From positions 1-38,057 of IMG/VR virus record IMGVR_UViG_3300042566_001761: DNA of 38,057 nt; one strand, given 5' to 3'. This document shows positions 5,535 through 36,886 of this stretch, one piece after another. Positions within the stretch are counted from its first letter, which is position 1. Each line of letters begins with the position of its first letter. The DNA comes from a virus. Lineage: Duplodnaviria; Caudoviricetes. The notes below the pieces were generated by a model, which saw nothing but the letters and a program-made list of their open reading frames with translations, was not told the origin of the DNA and searched no databases. The position numbers and the translations under genes were made by a program.

Positions 5535-5542
5535 TATTTATA
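5535..5542 (-). promoter_or_regulatory. T4-type late promoter TATAAATA
   Basis: Exact T4 gp55 consensus, 26 nt upstream of the ATG at 5508 and just downstream of a terminator. Confidence 0.75.
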
Positions 5543-10707: not shown

Positions 10708-12018
10708 TTAAAGAGCGATCTCAGTCTTAGAATCTTTGGTTGCGTGATACGCAAGTGGTGAACCAACAACTAGACACTCTGTTAGATTTGCAGAAACTTG
10801 CATATCTGATCGACCTTTAATTGTTGATTGCTGGATTGTATTTATGCCGGATTGGTTAAAATTACAGTTAGAAAGATTTGAGTATCTAATGTCATTTTTA
10901 TCAAAAATTGTACACTCTAATAACCTAGAACTTCTAACTTTACAGTTAAGTAAAGTACATTCAGAAATCTCAGCCTGGATAAATGAATCAATAAAAACAA
11001 TACCCGATAAGTTAAAGCCATTTTTGATACGACCCTCTAAAACTTCAAGTTGAGAGGTTTCTGAATTATAGTTAACCTTTCCTCTAACTAAACCGCCATA
11101 TGTTACTAAATCAAATAGTTTTTCTCTAACTAGATTAAATTTAGCGGATAGAATTTCTGGCCTAGAGTCTAGATCCATTGACAATGTTATCAGTGGATAT
11201 TTAGTCTCAAACGTTGAATAAGTTTTTAACCCTGTTAAGTGTTCTTTTTGTTCAGTTAAAATCTGTTTAATTTTCTCACGATCTTTATCTGAATAAACTG
11301 AATTTGATTTTAGGGTTGAAAATAGGGATTCAATAACTAAATTTAAAAGTTCAACTGCTTGAGCTGACTTCTTTTCATAATCCTTACCGCCAATATACTT
11401 AACAGTTACAAAACCTTCACTAATTCTATCAAAATTGATACCGAACTGTTTTGATCTTGGAAAGCTAAATTCCATTTGCGAAGAATAACTTCCAGACGGA
11501 ACAGTTGCCTCAGCAATAAATTTATTTTTTGGGTATATTAAATTTATAGAGTGCTTAAATATTTTACTAGATCTAATTTCTTGAGGCCATAGTTCAAATG
11601 CTTTAGCTTCATTAAAATTAAGTAAAAATTTAAACTTATTTAGTTGAGGAATTCTTGCACCCTCATTCATTTTTGAAAATCCTAAATCAATTTTAACTTT
11701 ACATAATTCATTGGTATAGCCATTTTCTTCAATAAATTTAAATGACTTAAGTAGAGCATTAACGCCTTCGTAATAGTATACTGGGCCAATTGTCATGCGC
11801 TTCATTTTAAAACCGTTATTGTAGAGATTAGTTAATCTTGCTCCATTTTCTTTTACTGGTTGCCAGGCATCTCTGGTTGCACCAACTTCTACTTCTCTAT
11901 GTAGAGTCAACTGGGCTTTTTCTGCAAGTTGTTGAATTGATTTGTTTGAAAAGAAATCAACCGTAAGCACAAACTGTGCAGATTCAACATGTTCTCTATT
12001 TTTAATGTCTAAAATCAT
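10708..12018 (-). CDS. Amidoligase (COOH-NH2 ligase)-fold protein, apparently inactive, with C-terminal beta-helix/pentapeptide-like repeats (436 aa)
   Basis: Order and spacing of LTVDFFS / RMTIGP / GYTNELCKVKIDL / KQFGINF / FVTVKYIGG parallel the Amidoligase_2 motifs GxExE / ExxSP / TNxSCGxHxH / KYxxxN / ExR. C-terminus shows 5-residue periodicity (ISECTLLNCKVRSSRLLECTI). Confidence 0.55.
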   Translation of the reverse strand: MILDIKNREHVESAQFVLTVDFFSNKSIQQLAEKAQLTLHREVEVGATRDAWQPVKENGARLTNLYNNGFKMKRMTIGPVYYYEGVNALLKSFKFIEENGYTNELCKVKIDLGFSKMNEGARIPQLNKFKFLLNFNEAKAFELWPQEIRSSKIFKHSINLIYPKNKFIAEATVPSGSYSSQMEFSFPRSKQFGINFDRISEGFVTVKYIGGKDYEKKSAQAVELLNLVIESLFSTLKSNSVYSDKDREKIKQILTEQKEHLTGLKTYSTFETKYPLITLSMDLDSRPEILSAKFNLVREKLFDLVTYGGLVRGKVNYNSETSQLEVLEGRIKNGFNLSGIVFIDSFIQAEISECTLLNCKVRSSRLLECTIFDKNDIRYSNLSNCNFNQSGINTIQQSTIKGRSDMQVSANLTECLVVGSPLAYHATKDSKTEIAL

Positions 12019-30772: not shown

Positions 30773-31597
30773 TTAAGGATTACTTAAATTTATTGCAGAG
30801 CCGTCGTTTCGATTAATTATCGTACCATCTGACAAGATTTCGTAGTCATCAAAGTTAATATCTATCATTTGAGAGTCGGCATTTAGCGTATTTTTTGCTA
30901 AACTTGATGTGATTTCTCTTGAATTTAAACTTTGCTCAATATAATCTATGTATGAGTCCTTTGACATTACCTTTACAAATTGGCTTGACGGTAGCGGGTG
31001 TTCATTACCCCAAAGATCAATGACTGTTCCAGATATTTCATATTCACCAACTTTGTCAAATCTCCAAATAAAGGTCCAACCTGCTTCAACCTCAATCAGG
31101 GTTTTCGGAGCAGACCCTGATGTAATATCAGTTAGCTTCCAAAACACTTTATCCTTTCCCATAACTTCTCTAGCTGAGATAAACACCGGTAGATGGGCTG
31201 GAACAGTTAAACGGTCAGTTGCTATCTTTAATTCTGATACATCTAGGGAATTTCTGGTAAAAAATGATGGAATAAATCCAACTTGTTTTCCATCTTTATA
31301 TGAAATAAAACCTCGGTTTTTCCAATATTCTGGCTCAGAAACTTTTCTAGTTACTTCAACTCCATTTTCAATAAATTTTCTACCATATATTTGATCATTC
31401 AGTGGTGCATATACCATAAGATTCTCAACATCAAACTCCGGAATAACTCCATATAATTTTAGTTGCTCAAGGTTTGCCATTTGCTCCTTTGAATAGGTTT
31501 CAATCGGTTCATAGTATGAATACTTATTCGCAGAGGTAAATGTTACGTTTGCGCTAGGTAATCCAATTGTAGATATGTTAACATAAGTTATCGGCAT
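30773..31597 (-). CDS. PKD/Ig-like domain structural protein (274 aa)
   Basis: WKL...FIWRFDKVGEYEISGTVIDLWGN is PKD-like; start overlaps the upstream stop (TAATG). Confidence 0.6.
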   Translation of the reverse strand: MPITYVNISTIGLPSANVTFTSANKYSYYEPIETYSKEQMANLEQLKLYGVIPEFDVENLMVYAPLNDQIYGRKFIENGVEVTRKVSEPEYWKNRGFISYKDGKQVGFIPSFFTRNSLDVSELKIATDRLTVPAHLPVFISAREVMGKDKVFWKLTDITSGSAPKTLIEVEAGWTFIWRFDKVGEYEISGTVIDLWGNEHPLPSSQFVKVMSKDSYIDYIEQSLNSREITSSLAKNTLNADSQMIDINFDDYEILSDGTIINRNDGSAINLSNP

Positions 31598-34362
31598 TAA
31601 TTATGATCAATTTTTAATTTAGCGGATCTTACTCCAATACCAGCTGGCTGAACTCTAAGTTTAACACTATATGTATTTCCAGGAGTAATTGTAATATTAT
31701 TAATAATTGAGACAACACTTTCATTTTGACCTGATCCAAGAACTAATTTAAATTCGTCTGCATCTTGATCTATTGATATTGAAGCAATTTCAAGGGTTGT
31801 ACTAGTTGAGGTATTTGTAATTGGAACAGTTAAATCTCTATTTGCACCAACTTCTGTTGAATTAAATACAATTACCTCATTTGCTGTACCTACATTAAAG
31901 CTTGGTGCACTAACCAATACTGAGACATTAATCGTATTAGAAACAACGGAACTTGGGCCTTTTACCCTAATCGAGAAAAGATCGGTTCCTGTATAGTTTA
32001 AAGTTGGAATATATCGAATTCCATAATTTAAAATGGATAAGGTTCCCTGGCTAGGCTGAGTAATTACCTCAAACCCATTAAATGAAGATCCATTTAAGTT
32101 AACATAAGGTAATGTATTAATGTCAATATAGGTATTTCTTCCTGATATTTGCTGAGGAATTTGCGATAAGATTGGTGAAGCCGGCTGCACAGTTAAAGTT
32201 GCGGTAACACTTGATGTTTGAGCAGTTGGCGCATTATCGTTAACTACAGTTGCCGTAATGGTATATGTACCATTTTGCACATTTGTATATGTGACTGGGC
32301 TATTTGCGGCGCCTGTTCCTAATGGTGAACTAATTGTATAGCTTTTAGCATATTGAGTAGATACTCCAATCGTTACGTTGCTTCCACTAGTTATAGGAGC
32401 GGTAAATATTCCAGGATTACTGAAGGAAACCGTTGGAAATGGCGCAAGTACCTCTACTTGAAATTGTTTAGAAAAACTATTTGATAATGAAGTATTCTTA
32501 AATGGTGACGTATAATTAACAGTTAGGGTAGGGGTAATAAGTTCATATGCTGGATTTATTCCCCAAAGAGCAGTAAATGATCGAGTTGAATTATTTACAG
32601 AAATTACTGGAATAATAGTTGATCCAGTTTGAGTTACCGTAATACCGTATAGGGCATCTTCAGAAAATTCTGGAATCCACTCTGGGTAGACTGAATTGAC
32701 TCCAACTTGAATTGTTCCTGAAATACCTTGTCTTAGTACTTGATTTGCAATATAAGTATCACTAATTGGTTCTCCTACTACAACTTCTCTATATACTTGA
32801 AATCCAGTTGAATCGTTAAATGCGCCCTTAATACTAAATCTATAATAGCCAGGTACCCTTGGTCTAAATGATACTGAAGTTAATCCCTGGCCGTATTGAT
32901 AATATGAAAATCCTGGAATTTCTGGTAAAGAATTTAAGTCAGTACTTGAGTTTACATCTGCAATATTTTGCCAATCAGTTTCACTTGGGCTGGTTTTTTG
33001 TTGAATTGACCAAATAAGAGAAGTTTGATTTACTTGTTGTAAAGTTGCAGAAATCTTATAAACTCCTGGAATAGGATCTTCTGGTGATTGGTCAATAATT
33101 GAAACATACGATCTATTTTGGTTTGCAGTTGGTGTCGTAATATACGAATATGACTGAGACGTTCCGGCGCTTCCAGGTATGGCCTCAGATGCGATACTTA
33201 GAGAGGCTAAGTTTTGGCCTTGTGGAACATCACTAGTTGTAAAAGTTACAAAATTTGAATATAAGTATGAATTGTCTGATCCTTGTAAGTATGATCTTAG
33301 ATAGTATGGTCTGTTTGGAGTTAACCCTGGAATTTGAGTAACCAAATTAGATGGGCTAATGCTTGAATTAAATGCGCCCGATTCAAATCTAACTACTCCA
33401 GGCTGCCCTACTTCTAAGTTTGTGGAATTATCTAGTTTGTAGATAACTCCATACCTAACGTAAACATCGCCTCCACTATTAGTAAAGGTTGAGGTACTGG
33501 TTGCGCTGGTTTGTGTAATAGCGCTTATAGTTGGGGTAGTAATTGTACTTGCGCCAACCGTACTAAAACTTCCAGTAGGTGATGTCCCTACTCCAGTTGA
33601 ATTATTTGCGAATGCTGTTAAAGTATACGCTGAACCTGCAAGTAATCCATTAAATTGCACAGATATTCCAAGCGAAAAATCAGTAAGAGTTTGGACTCCA
33701 ACTTCGGTACCGTTTTTAAATAATTTAAATTGAACACTAGTTACAGTACTGCCACCATTATTTGAAATTGTTGTTGTTGCAATTACTGAGGTTGCTGTAA
33801 TTGAACTAAAGGTCGGCGTTGTTAGCGTTGCAACCGTACCAGTTTGCGGTGGAGTACATGCTCGATATCGAACCGTTTCTCCTATACACTCTCCGCCATT
33901 TGAGGCCGGTGTAACAACATATCGAGTTTGCTGCTCCTGATACGATCCATTAATTAGTCGACATGGGCCCCAATCTCCAACGACAAAGGATTGTTGAGTT
34001 TCGCCATAACCCCAATCGCTTAATACGCAATTGACTGGGCTTCCTCCAACTATACAATCGCTATGGTCAAAACATGAACTAAATCCACCAGAAATAGTTA
34101 TTCCATATGGTCCAGGATCAAAAACATAATCACCATATACCCTAATTAAAGGCTGCGAGGTTGAACATACGGCTAATGTTATAATTGACCCATTATAACT
34201 TTGGAACCAATTTGAAGCCTGCACAATGGTAGACTGCCCAGATGAAAAATCAGTATATTGAAAATCTACTGCATTAATTGGAGTTTGATTAGTATCAATA
34301 TCAATTTGATAACAAAATGGACTTCCTTCTATATTTTCCGGTTGGTCTATAAATGCTGGCAT
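31597..34362 (-). CDS. Mosaic adhesin-like virion protein: Cys-containing N-domain, TSP1/spondin-like repeat, 2x FN3, Ig-like, Big_9/cadherin-like and ASH/choice-of-anchor-D-like domains (921 aa)
   Basis: PVNCVLSDW...WGPC...QTRYVVTPASNGGEC...YRAC; GLLAGSAYTLTAFANNSTG and GLTPNRPYYLRSY (FN3); TQPSQGTL...YIPTLNYTGTDLFSIRV; FNSTEVG...ITNT...LEIASISI...ITPG...VRSAKLKIDHN. Confidence 0.75.
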   Translation of the reverse strand: MPAFIDQPENIEGSPFCYQIDIDTNQTPINAVDFQYTDFSSGQSTIVQASNWFQSYNGSIITLAVCSTSQPLIRVYGDYVFDPGPYGITISGGFSSCFDHSDCIVGGSPVNCVLSDWGYGETQQSFVVGDWGPCRLINGSYQEQQTRYVVTPASNGGECIGETVRYRACTPPQTGTVATLTTPTFSSITATSVIATTTISNNGGSTVTSVQFKLFKNGTEVGVQTLTDFSLGISVQFNGLLAGSAYTLTAFANNSTGVGTSPTGSFSTVGASTITTPTISAITQTSATSTSTFTNSGGDVYVRYGVIYKLDNSTNLEVGQPGVVRFESGAFNSSISPSNLVTQIPGLTPNRPYYLRSYLQGSDNSYLYSNFVTFTTSDVPQGQNLASLSIASEAIPGSAGTSQSYSYITTPTANQNRSYVSIIDQSPEDPIPGVYKISATLQQVNQTSLIWSIQQKTSPSETDWQNIADVNSSTDLNSLPEIPGFSYYQYGQGLTSVSFRPRVPGYYRFSIKGAFNDSTGFQVYREVVVGEPISDTYIANQVLRQGISGTIQVGVNSVYPEWIPEFSEDALYGITVTQTGSTIIPVISVNNSTRSFTALWGINPAYELITPTLTVNYTSPFKNTSLSNSFSKQFQVEVLAPFPTVSFSNPGIFTAPITSGSNVTIGVSTQYAKSYTISSPLGTGAANSPVTYTNVQNGTYTITATVVNDNAPTAQTSSVTATLTVQPASPILSQIPQQISGRNTYIDINTLPYVNLNGSSFNGFEVITQPSQGTLSILNYGIRYIPTLNYTGTDLFSIRVKGPSSVVSNTINVSVLVSAPSFNVGTANEVIVFNSTEVGANRDLTVPITNTSTSTTLEIASISIDQDADEFKLVLGSGQNESVVSIINNITITPGNTYSVKLRVQPAGIGVRSAKLKIDHN

Positions 34363-34363
34363 A

Positions 34364-36886
34364 TTAGTTTGGAGTTACTTTTACGGTAAAGTTATTTGTA
34401 TTTGAACTTTCCTTAGCAGTTGCATATACTTTATTATTTACAACTTTATATCTAAATTTAGAAATAGCACTATGTGTTGATGCATTTAATTGAGTAATTA
34501 AATTATCGATTGTCGAATAAGTTGGAACTGTATATGGATCGTGTAATCCTAGTCGTATTTTATGACCGATTGTTGGTGCATCAATTGAAAATCCTTGTAA
34601 AAAATCTGATTGATATGATAATTGATAGAATTTAGTATGGAAAAGGTCACCTATTCTTGCATTAGAAATATCGCTTACTCTAGGTTTAACTGAATTTTCT
34701 CCAAGTCCCCAAGAATACGCATAGTCTGAAACTAGAGTTGGATCACTAACTAATTTAAATTCACCACTTAGCTTATCCTTTATTTTAGCTTGAGTTGGTG
34801 CAGTATTATTACTAAAATTATTTGAATAGTACGCCCAATCAAATAATTCTTTTTCTAAATCAATCGATCCTATTTTTTGAGTGAATGATGGAATAGTTAC
34901 ATTTGGATTAAACATATAACTGCCTCCCATATCTCCAACTGTAACATTAGTTAAGTCTTTAAACTGATATGAAAATTTGTCTGAAGTTCTAGTAAATCCA
35001 ACTGTAGTTGCAACGGTTGGTTTAACTGTAAATTTAATAAAATCGACTGAAATTCCAGCAAATTGATCGTATACTCTTAATTCAATTAAATAGTCTCCAA
35101 CGTATGGTAAAAAGTGTACAATTCGGTTAAAGTCATAAATTGTTCCACGGAAACTCCATTTGTATTGGTTTGGTGCATTTTTAGTTATAGTCCATTCAGC
35201 ATCAACTAGGTTTAAATATGTGCTAATGTCCCGAACCCTAGCGCCCTCTGTTTCTAGATCGCCAAAGGTAATACCGTCATACTCTGATATTCTATATTTA
35301 GGAAGTTCTGCTTTAAGGATAATCGGGCAACCTAATTGTTCTTTAACATTAACTTCGCCGTTTGCCCAATAGTATGATGATCCATGGCGTTTCCATTCTT
35401 CGGCTTGGACTTGTTGATAAAATACTTCAGTTGCTTTAATTAAAGCTTTTTGCTGAGCTGCTGAATATCTTTGCCCATCGCTGTATGGATTAGCTATTGC
35501 TGAAAATGTTCCAGCTGAATCCTTTCCAGTATTAAATGAATATTTTGGAAAGTTATTTAAAATTTTAGCTGGATTTGCTGAATCGGCTTCCGCTGAATAG
35601 TAAATAGGTCTAATATCTCTGATATATGGAACTGCAATTGTTGAGCTAGGTAATTCAATAGAAGCTTTTACTTTAGTATTTACGTCTATACTTCTAGTTT
35701 GAACGTCATCTGTCCAATAACGAATATTGAATTTTTCAAAAAATATAAATTCTCCAATAATATCACGTACAATTACATGTATTGGTAAGATTTCTCTTTT
35801 TATCTTTTTGGCTAATCCATCTAATTTATAGAAAATTTCAGCTGGTGTAAAATCAGTAGTTTCAATCACTTCAGGTAAGCCGTCATCATCGTAATTATTG
35901 CTAGCTTTGGTAAATTGATAACAAAGAGCAATAAATGAAGTCTTTTTAAATTGAGCAGACTCTAATACGGCGCCTCCGTTTGAAACATAAACCATATTAT
36001 CAATTTTGCCATCATCTAAAAAATCTGTAATGTTAACTAGCGCGAATTGATCAAGCGCAGCTGATGAATTGTTAACGTTTTGCCAAAACTCTTTAACGTC
36101 TAGTGTATCTTTATAACCAAATAAATTTATAAAATTACTTAAACCTTTATAGGTTCCAACATATGGGAAAACCTGATCGCGATTAACTAAAAGCTCTTTT
36201 CTGGCTTGGTCAATTTGTTGCCAATCGGGTAGAGCCTCTTTAATATCATAATCCTTTAATAGTTGTGCGTCGTCTCGATGGAAAGAAATTCCAAAATTAT
36301 TTAGCCATAGTCTATATCTAGAATCCTCGTCTAGACCCTCTCCATAATAATCTATTTCTAAAATCTTAACAGATGATGAAACTGTATTACCGGATAAAAT
36401 TTCGTGATATGCCAATAACTTACGTTGATAAATCTTTTCCTCAGCTGGAGAAAAGGCAATATTTACCTGTAATGGAAGGTTGATATCTAATGGAGAACTA
36501 GAACCATTTGAAAAATCAGAATGATTAAGGGTTACTTGGTTTACCCTTTCAATATAAGGTAACTCGGTAACGCTATTTCCGGTGATATCTTGTTTAACTA
36601 CATATAAAAAGAAGGGCTGCACTCCGTCTAAATCAAGAGTTTCCCATTTAAACACAATTCTTTCGTTTTGAGCTAATATTGGAAACTTATAATTAGTAGA
36701 GTCTTTTTCGACTGCAAAAATTTGTCGGCTATCATATAACCCAATTGAAATTGGACTAATATACTCTCGGCCATACCACCAGGTGATAGCATCTGACTTT
36801 TGAGTCTCAGAATTAAACTTAGTGGTCTGAAAGTTATAGTTTTCACCAAACTTATCAAAAAATATGAGATTAGAAAGTTGCATCAA
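34364..36886 (-). CDS. Baseplate wedge-like structural protein (840 aa; ATG at 36883 is the likelier start)
   Basis: FPYVGTYKGLSNFINLFGY and KREILPIHV resemble the KGT...G / lPah signature of P2 gpI / T4 gp7-type wedge proteins; PKD-like VGDYLIELRVYD. Confidence 0.55.
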   Translation of the reverse strand: MMQLSNLIFFDKFGENYNFQTTKFNSETQKSDAITWWYGREYISPISIGLYDSRQIFAVEKDSTNYKFPILAQNERIVFKWETLDLDGVQPFFLYVVKQDITGNSVTELPYIERVNQVTLNHSDFSNGSSSPLDINLPLQVNIAFSPAEEKIYQRKLLAYHEILSGNTVSSSVKILEIDYYGEGLDEDSRYRLWLNNFGISFHRDDAQLLKDYDIKEALPDWQQIDQARKELLVNRDQVFPYVGTYKGLSNFINLFGYKDTLDVKEFWQNVNNSSAALDQFALVNITDFLDDGKIDNMVYVSNGGAVLESAQFKKTSFIALCYQFTKASNNYDDDGLPEVIETTDFTPAEIFYKLDGLAKKIKREILPIHVIVRDIIGEFIFFEKFNIRYWTDDVQTRSIDVNTKVKASIELPSSTIAVPYIRDIRPIYYSAEADSANPAKILNNFPKYSFNTGKDSAGTFSAIANPYSDGQRYSAAQQKALIKATEVFYQQVQAEEWKRHGSSYYWANGEVNVKEQLGCPIILKAELPKYRISEYDGITFGDLETEGARVRDISTYLNLVDAEWTITKNAPNQYKWSFRGTIYDFNRIVHFLPYVGDYLIELRVYDQFAGISVDFIKFTVKPTVATTVGFTRTSDKFSYQFKDLTNVTVGDMGGSYMFNPNVTIPSFTQKIGSIDLEKELFDWAYYSNNFSNNTAPTQAKIKDKLSGEFKLVSDPTLVSDYAYSWGLGENSVKPRVSDISNARIGDLFHTKFYQLSYQSDFLQGFSIDAPTIGHKIRLGLHDPYTVPTYSTIDNLITQLNASTHSAISKFRYKVVNNKVYATAKESSNTNNFTVKVTPN

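Follow-up and report, generated by a model that had tools for sequence, protein, structure and literature searches.

Thrombospondin type 1 repeats (TSRs) are taught as eukaryotic, secreted and glycosylated modules. What, then, is such a repeat doing in a protein of a tailed phage? The question is raised by IMG/VR virus record IMGVR_UViG_3300042566_001761 (Duplodnaviria; Caudoviricetes), positions 1 to 38,057 of which form the stretch analysed here (the window, 38,057 nucleotides). The phage is a lake-dwelling relative of the Lak/PAU/PTm1 jumbo phages, mostly phages of Bacteroidota, and the gene in question is an open reading frame (ORF) of 921 amino acids (aa) in a run of structural genes (Table 1). 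We conclude that residues 109-170 of this protein are a genuine four-cysteine TSR with the spondin (group 2) cysteine layout. As to its role, we put at about one in two the probability that the protein forms an accessory fibre of the virion, with the TSR as a stiff neck that is stapled by disulfides formed after lysis and holds up a variable tip.

The domain is a thrombospondin repeat

Translation gives a domain of 62 residues with four cysteines: C112, C134, C159 and C169. The position of C3 is taken by N138, and C6 is absent. This is the pattern that the original prediction had read – C1, C2, C4 and C5 kept, C3 and C6 both missing – and translation confirms it. The pattern is a property of the family: in an alignment of 24 members (the window protein and 23 of its 26 full-length relatives, three near-duplicates being omitted) every domain contains exactly four cysteines, the third displaced by one column in three of them, and the C3 column holds asparagine in 21 and glutamine in 3.

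Profile searches support the assignment indirectly. In a Pfam scan the TSR alone fell below threshold for both TSP1_spondin (PF19028; 17.6 bits, cut-off 41) and TSP_1 (PF00090; 17.4 bits, cut-off 21.6), PKD_5 equalled the TSP1_spondin score on the same stretch (17.6 bits), and phmmer against PDB sequences gave zero matches. Against 1.84 billion proteins phmmer returned 52 matches at E<=1e-3, many of these E-values being sums over repeats. Pfam was run on 45 of the 52 (one family member and six very long proteins were left aside); TSP1_spondin was found on 38, above cut-off in 36, and 7 lacked it. The profile check proposed with the original prediction is thus negative for the domain taken alone and positive for its matches. 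A profile built from 76 repeats reached 24 PDB sequences, with a best E of 1e-10, among them complement C6-C9, F-spondin, R-spondin, UNC5, MIC2, thrombospondin-1 and others.

Structure prediction and Foldseek, also proposed at the outset, both speak for the fold. An AlphaFold model of aa 107-173, built on the 76-repeat alignment, reached a predicted local distance difference test score (pLDDT) of 94.7 and is elongated, antiparallel and three-stranded, a fold predicted from an alignment that is itself TSR-like. All 46 rows listed by Foldseek against the PDB bear TSRs (best E 0.03, no listed row at E<=1e-3; root-mean-square deviation, rmsd, 2.0-2.4 A), the template-modelling (TM) scores of 0.63-0.64 belonging to complement TSRs; one row is titled only 'Metalloproteinase', which we take to be ADAMTS13. 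VIA-align gave a modest best Z of 5.2 (rmsd 2.7, 53 aligned), and all 22 of its listed rows are TSRs or TSR-like. A PKD-like or fibronectin-III (FN3) reading of the same stretch was rejected on two grounds: the FN3 and PKD matches extend no further than a short TPASNG segment, and what the fold search brings up are TSRs.

Comparison with group 2 repeats

The best structural matches of the phage TSR are the group 2 TSRs (Pfam TSP1_spondin, PF19028; F-spondin TSR4, PDB 1vex; complement C6-C9). Common to both are the three-stranded elongated fold, predicted in our case, an N-terminal PVxC cysteine, the A-C disulfide layout and the S-x-W, W-x-x-C, R and P-x-x-NGG-x-C motifs. The cysteines for the two capping disulfides of this group (the top one joining strands A and C) are present, the bonds themselves being predicted. 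What the phage domain lacks is the third, bottom disulfide (C3-C6) of F-spondin proper. According to the relevant passages of Tan et al. (2002, PMC2173040), the C3-C6 bond is also missing from the C-terminal TSRs of complement, so that its absence rules out the strict F-spondin type and leaves the fold untouched. The domain therefore folds like a group 2 TSR while strict F-spondin-type membership is excluded: the spondin-class assignment of the original prediction holds for the cysteine layout and fails for the narrower type.

Further differences lie in the Trp and Arg rows. The Trp row reads L114 (24/24), W117 (23/24) and W131 (W in 17, F in 6, K in 1), and is not the W-W-W row of strand A; loss of the first Trp is also described for TRAP-type TSRs in the passages cited above (PMC2173040). 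W117 and W131 are separated by 13 residues, where group 2 TSRs have 2, which amounts to an insert of 11 residues that, among the matches listed of 159 aligned repeats, is confined to the TSR-gene family. In the Arg row, whose strand B register was taken from the alignment, E143 (R in 15/24), Q145 (24/24) and R147 (24/24) stand in place of R-x-R-x-R, giving E/R-x-Q-x-R with an invariant glutamine at the middle layer. Y141, Y148 and Y166 occur in 24/24 members, Y119 in 23/24, and an aromatic residue at position 126 in 24/24. Unlike group 2 TSRs, the phage domain falls below the Pfam cut-off and is net acidic: by sequence count its charge is -2, exceeding zero in only 4/24 relatives with a maximum of +1, and it contains no cluster of basic residues like that of glycosaminoglycan (GAG)-binding TSRs. 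The protein, again unlike those that carry group 2 TSRs, has no secretion signal and is made in the bacterial cytoplasm. In glycosylated eukaryotic TSRs the O-fucosylation motif spans C2-C3 and the C-mannosylation motif is WxxW; the phage TSR sequence contains neither a WxxW nor a C3, and so neither motif.

Four-cysteine repeats in other viruses and in bacteria

A pattern scan of IMG/VR returned 46 viral loci, 5 from the phage's own lineage, 8 read as giant viruses and 33 as other tailed phages. The giant-virus reading draws on Pfam support for L017, L026, L049 and, in part, L020, on the record name for L047, and on likeness for the remainder. In the other tailed phages the TSRs are found on crAss-like proteins (phrog_14478), on a major tail protein (phrog_1407) and on a protein with tail-fibre matches, or alternatively adjoin tape-measure, tail and virion genes, with up to 10 repeats per protein; the context of L019 is not clear. 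C3 is missing from 69/69 repeats of 23 of the 33 tailed-phage loci (near-duplicates dropped), a figure biased by four-cysteine search seeds, from 11/49 repeats of giant-virus loci and from 20/82 in eukaryote-like proteins.

Databases already name members of this class. RefSeq holds a Flavobacterium TSP1 protein (WP_182650583.1), and the top viral fold match of our model (E 1.3e-3, TM 0.63) is the UniProt entry A0A6J5N7M8, named as a TSP1 repeat from a Caudovirales phage that is uncultured. These and the other tailed-phage repeats (L009-L046) share with the window TSR the cysteine class, a VITPASNGG-type loop and the setting among virion structural genes. They are mostly tandem repeats of ~48 residues with W-x-x-W and RTR, whereas the TSR of the Lak/PAU-like myovirus is single and longer, with its insert and invariant tyrosines. 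Giant-virus TSR proteins (prasinoviruses, Fadolivirus; BFVD ranks 2-23) also present the TSR fold in a virus, and P0041 and P0034, read as giant-virus-like without genomic context, have four-cysteine forms with a similar loop. Most giant-virus TSR proteins, by contrast, are tandem rods of six-cysteine repeats that have a hydrophobic anchor at the N-terminus, and their eukaryotic hosts provide oxidative folding.

A tblastn search of 50,697 GenBank phage records found no credible match for the whole protein, for P0027, for the crAss-like TSR pair or for the window TSR, the lone row having an E of 7; the class is therefore recurrent but rare, so far in uncultured phages. The original prediction had named a wide spread of the domain in phages and bacteria as telling against it. 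This applies in part: such repeats recur in uncultured phages and occur in Flavobacterium, though none was found in the GenBank phage records. A scan of bacterial genomes with one protein returned a single locus, in Myxococcaceae, of the six-cysteine type, and among 301 genomes of the phylum to which it belongs 4 matched at E<=1e-5: the genome that supplied the seed, two others with a single match each, and a fourth with a stop. The product of the Myxococcaceae gene (L061:4810-7562), in a record with an N gap, is a cellular protein of six-cysteine TSR repeats whose C-terminal tail is hydrophobic and basic.

Several loci deserve mention in their own right. In two of them the major tail protein bears two tandem four-cysteine TSRs (L016:4422-5465 and L036:2294-3340; phrog_1407, scanned for L016), and a second copy of the tail gene, devoid of TSRs, adjoins the TSR-bearing copy. 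These tail proteins are a strong hint that TSRs decorate virion surfaces in the manner of immunoglobulin (Ig) domains. In L012, L014, L021, L034 and L044 a crAss-like virion protein (phrog_14478 in the three that were scanned) has a variable C-terminal extension, and there, from about aa 1400 onwards, lie between 1 and 10 TSRs. The product of L048:173-5293, a TSR protein of giant-virus-like character that is hydrophobic near its N-terminus, also matches the phage tail-fibre PHROGs 11439 and 2056, which makes an exchange of modules between giant viruses and phages plausible. On another giant-virus-like contig a bacteriorhodopsin-like gene (L030:8921-9577) adjoins an array of TSR genes.

The wider significance is that a disulfide-rich TSR reused on virion proteins made in the bacterial cytoplasm would be a new fold in the phage surface-decoration kit of Ig, FN3 and lectin domains. 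It raises the question of how such disulfides form, and it cautions against taking a TSP1 match in a phage or bacterium as proof that the domain came recently from a eukaryote. What the present locus contributes is a form that is structurally distinct and occurs in single copy, in a jumbo phage of the Lak/PAU kind; the surprise is moderate, since other members of this recurring class are already annotated in databases. That class, annotated in UniProt and RefSeq, is apparently unpublished: a literature search, which missed most subscription papers, found no paper on TSRs in phage virion proteins. The accessible text of a study of other eukaryote-shared adhesion domains in jumbo phages (PMC7824862) has 'thrombospondin' only in a reference.

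Architecture of the 921-aa protein

The full-length AlphaFold model is a string of beta-sandwiches, and its Foldseek rows are multi-Ig/FN3 proteins. The approximately seven tandem Ig/FN3-like domains are what is expected of a phage Ig-like virion adhesin. Matches to named families are scattered: PF00041 is precomputed on the FN3-like region of 4/26 relatives, aa 688-724 show weak Y_Y_Y and TQ matches, and Cep192_D4 matches the C-terminal domain at E 2.2e-7 (31.5 bits, below the cut-off of 35.5). By eye, the sequence contains neither a signal peptide nor a membrane span.

Conservation is distributed unevenly over the nine domains. The N-terminal domain has the lowest identity to 19 distant relatives (44% on average) and occurs in 40 copies in 24 proteins, being duplicated in 16/24 relatives. 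The TSR is the most conserved (65%; 24/63 columns invariant, including Y141, Y148, Y166 and the glycines of the insert), nearly matched by the C-terminal ASH-like domain (64.5%) and D8 (63.4%).

The N-terminal domain is itself of interest: an unnamed four-cysteine beta domain of 90 residues that occurs once or twice per protein and is modelled with confidence (pLDDT about 70-89). No named family was found for it, and the ESM Atlas gave only unnamed viral clusters at 0.80-0.82. Modules resembling it flank TSRs in other phage proteins, at scores not above those of shuffled sequences. The idea that the domain is common to the other TSR phage proteins is not supported, the best score among 82 proteins being 7.3 bits against 7.5 in 20-fold shuffles.

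Comparable proteins are T4 Hoc and the BACON/PKD adhesins of Bacteroidota phages, the latter known from the accessible parts of a paper on Ig-like phage adhesins (PMC13370021). A modular Ig/FN3-like chain, the status of accessory gene and kinship with Bacteroidota phages are held in common. The protein studied here differs in that its N-terminal end bears a TSR and eight cysteines, the habitat is freshwater and not gut, and adhesion is putative; no sequence match links it to those families.

Proposed role

A central issue is what the TSR does on this protein. In the reading that we favour, the N-terminal cysteine-rich domain would be a variable binding tip for glycans of cell surfaces or particles. 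The TSR would hold this tip away from the Ig/FN3-like chain, which would be anchored to the virion by its C-terminal end, and the pairs C112-C159 and C134-C169 would oxidise after lysis. The net charge, the ladder residues and the pattern of variability are all compatible with a stiff stalk. The module would have reached the lineage from a pool shared among aquatic phages and not directly from a eukaryote.

To judge by its genomic context, the protein is probably on the virion. Its accessory status follows from its divergence – in 5/7 relative loci it is 53-58% identical, beside neighbours at 77-99% – and from the absence of the gene both from the syntenic slot of the huge phage LR756500 and from the GenBank phage records. 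The low identity and variable copy number of the N-terminal domain point to a variable tip. An origin in a phage pool is suggested by the TSRs on phage structural proteins, by the four best single-repeat scores to the window TSR, all phage or phage-like (class means are 98.8 for phages and 72-93 for the giant-virus and eukaryote-like sets), and by the approximately unbiased (AU) test, which does not reject a clade of the family with all phage and Flavobacterium repeats (p 0.4, which is no proof).

Several observations weigh against this reading. The similarity ranking is biased, since the window sequence was itself part of the alignment whose patterns served to find the phage loci. The free tree joins the family to two six-cysteine giant-virus(-like) repeats (93/88, unstarred), and the spacing from C2 to the Arg row is of the long six-cysteine type, as in giant-virus-like P0041. 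Among 150/238 ORFs of a relative rated 84% complete, a thioredoxin was seen but no thiol oxidase. The 921-aa protein falls in no PHROG family, and in its full-length AlphaFold model aa 130-174 have pLDDT <50, the confident model having needed the TSR alignment. Finally, the conservation of the TSR exceeds the obvious need of a passive spacer, and it is present in single copy, unlike the tandem rods found elsewhere.

The last two points favour a different role, in which the TSR is itself a docking or ligand surface, its insert and invariant tyrosines forming a new face for a neutral glycan, a host surface protein, or a virion protein or subunit. In a protein that diverges fast, no domain is as conserved as the TSR; the tyrosines and the aromatic at position 126 are essentially fixed, and among the aligned repeats listed the insert was seen in this family alone. 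Small disulfide domains, however, tend to have many residues fixed for structural reasons, the tyrosines may do no more than pack against the insert, and the ASH-like and D8 domains are nearly as conserved; we consider this role, the main alternative, possible yet doubtful. A broader scenario strikes us as unlikely: that aquatic tailed phages keep an old, minimal four-cysteine TSR class as a mobile virion decoration, traded among crAss-like phages, sipho-, podo- and jumbo myoviruses and giant viruses, and that in this lineage an 11-residue hairpin and three invariant tyrosines have turned it into a new surface that binds the algal or bacterial polymers on which the host lives.

The original prediction saw in the TSR a horizontally acquired eukaryotic adhesion module, perhaps sticking the phage to sulfated polysaccharides or to algal or animal surfaces. 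Bacteroidota often live on algal polymers, which suits such a function, and TSRs are mostly eukaryotic in databases (scores 0.79-0.83, a lead only). The giant-virus(-like) neighbours in the tree and the four-cysteine forms in giant-virus loci and eukaryote-like proteins would likewise suit a eukaryotic or giant-virus source, and TSP1 is treated as an animal-type domain in the text available to us of PMC3417536. The distinctiveness of the module, though, is not supported, given the 33 unrelated tailed-phage loci of the same cysteine class, and because similar repeats recur in unrelated uncultured phages a single, isolated capture from a eukaryote is improbable. Nor is there a compositional anomaly: the GC content at third codon positions is 0.29, within the range of the window (7% of 138 sub-windows are as high), and no codon signal of foreign origin was seen. 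In the tree (76 rows, 57 columns) the family coheres at 100/99 on a long branch and 34/73 inner branches are open; support for a donor on the eukaryotic side is unstarred, the phage clade is not rejected, and the tree points to no single donor. Heparin-type binding to sulfated glycans appears unlikely for a domain that is net acidic, has a single invariant ladder arginine and carries an 11-residue insert; GAG binding has been tied to extra basic residues, F-spondin TSR1-4 not being involved, in the passages of Tan et al. (2002, PMC2173040) on this point. A module taken from a eukaryote or giant virus for such adhesion is, on balance, improbable.

Least probable is that the protein acts off the virion, as a late product freed at lysis or put on the host surface: it matches no virion family and a T4-type late promoter is absent directly upstream (the sole TATAAATA in the window is at 5535), but neither signal peptide nor membrane span was seen, the gene sits inside a structural run with overlapping start and stop codons, and TSRs elsewhere are fused to recognised virion proteins.

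Genomic context

The window contains, in one same-strand run, a late sigma factor together with genes for neck, baseplate and tail fibre. For each of two neighbouring genes there are matches in 31 GenBank phage records – Lak, PAU, PTm1/PTm5, pT24, MA9V, MaF61 and huge phages such as LR756500 – and since most named hosts of these phages are Bacteroidota, a host from this group is probable. In LR756500 the homologue of the upstream neighbour directly follows the baseplate wedge gene (phrog_219). Gene order is identical in all seven relative loci compared. The genome of one relative (216.8 kb, estimated completeness 84%) encodes a gp23-type capsid.

Table 1. Coordinates of the TSR gene, its predicted domains and its neighbours in the window.
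Feature	Position	Strand	Basis
Upstream neighbour, 840 aa, likely baseplate-region protein, conserved in Lak/PAU/PTm1-like phages	34364..36886	-	phrog_28177; 31 phage records
921-aa ORF (Cys-rich domain, TSR and Ig/FN3-like chain), likely an accessory fibre of the virion surface	31597..34362	-	ORF, relatives, model
N-terminal four-cysteine beta domain, aa 15-103, candidate distal tip	34054..34320	-	lowest identity, copy number
Four-cysteine TSR, aa 109-170 (C112, C134, C159, C169; W117, W131; E143-Q145-R147; insert 11 residues)	33853..34038	-	profile, model, fold, alignment
Two fibronectin-III-like domains, aa 175-377	33232..33840	-	model strand pattern; PF00041 on relatives; boundaries inferred
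Four Ig-like beta-sandwich domains, aa 383-819	31906..33216	-	model; weak Pfam matches; boundaries inferred
C-terminal Cep192_D4-like Ig domain, aa 826-921, candidate anchor	31600..31887	-	weak Pfam match and conservation
Downstream neighbour, 274 aa, start codon overlaps TSR-gene stop	30773..31597	-	order kept in 7/7 relative loci

An assembly artefact was considered and rejected, as the gene is found in 10 IMG/VR loci and contigs from two other runs span its whole length. Fifteen sequencing runs hold at least half of the gene's words; 7 of them may be the source sample, and 7 of the other 8 are from lakes or freshwater. RNA runs hold only 5-11% of these words, and a contig from an RNA library covers the TSR, which does not show transcription.

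Three further observations concern neighbouring genes. The two genes that flank the TSR gene (30773-31597 and 34364-36886) may be the halves of a single 998-aa gene of LR756500 (L060:21112-24108), with the TSR gene between them; the match of the 274-aa protein to the C-terminus of the 998-aa product is in register and not significant (E 3.2, profile E about 0.3). Among the structural genes of the window lies a 436-aa ORF (10708-12018) with a weak C-terminal pentapeptide-repeat match and no PHROG family. Behind the tail-fibre genes of a relative (G002; L076:10116-15285) there is a 438-aa ORF containing 25 cysteines, accompanied by three lectin genes of the Laminin_G_3 family.

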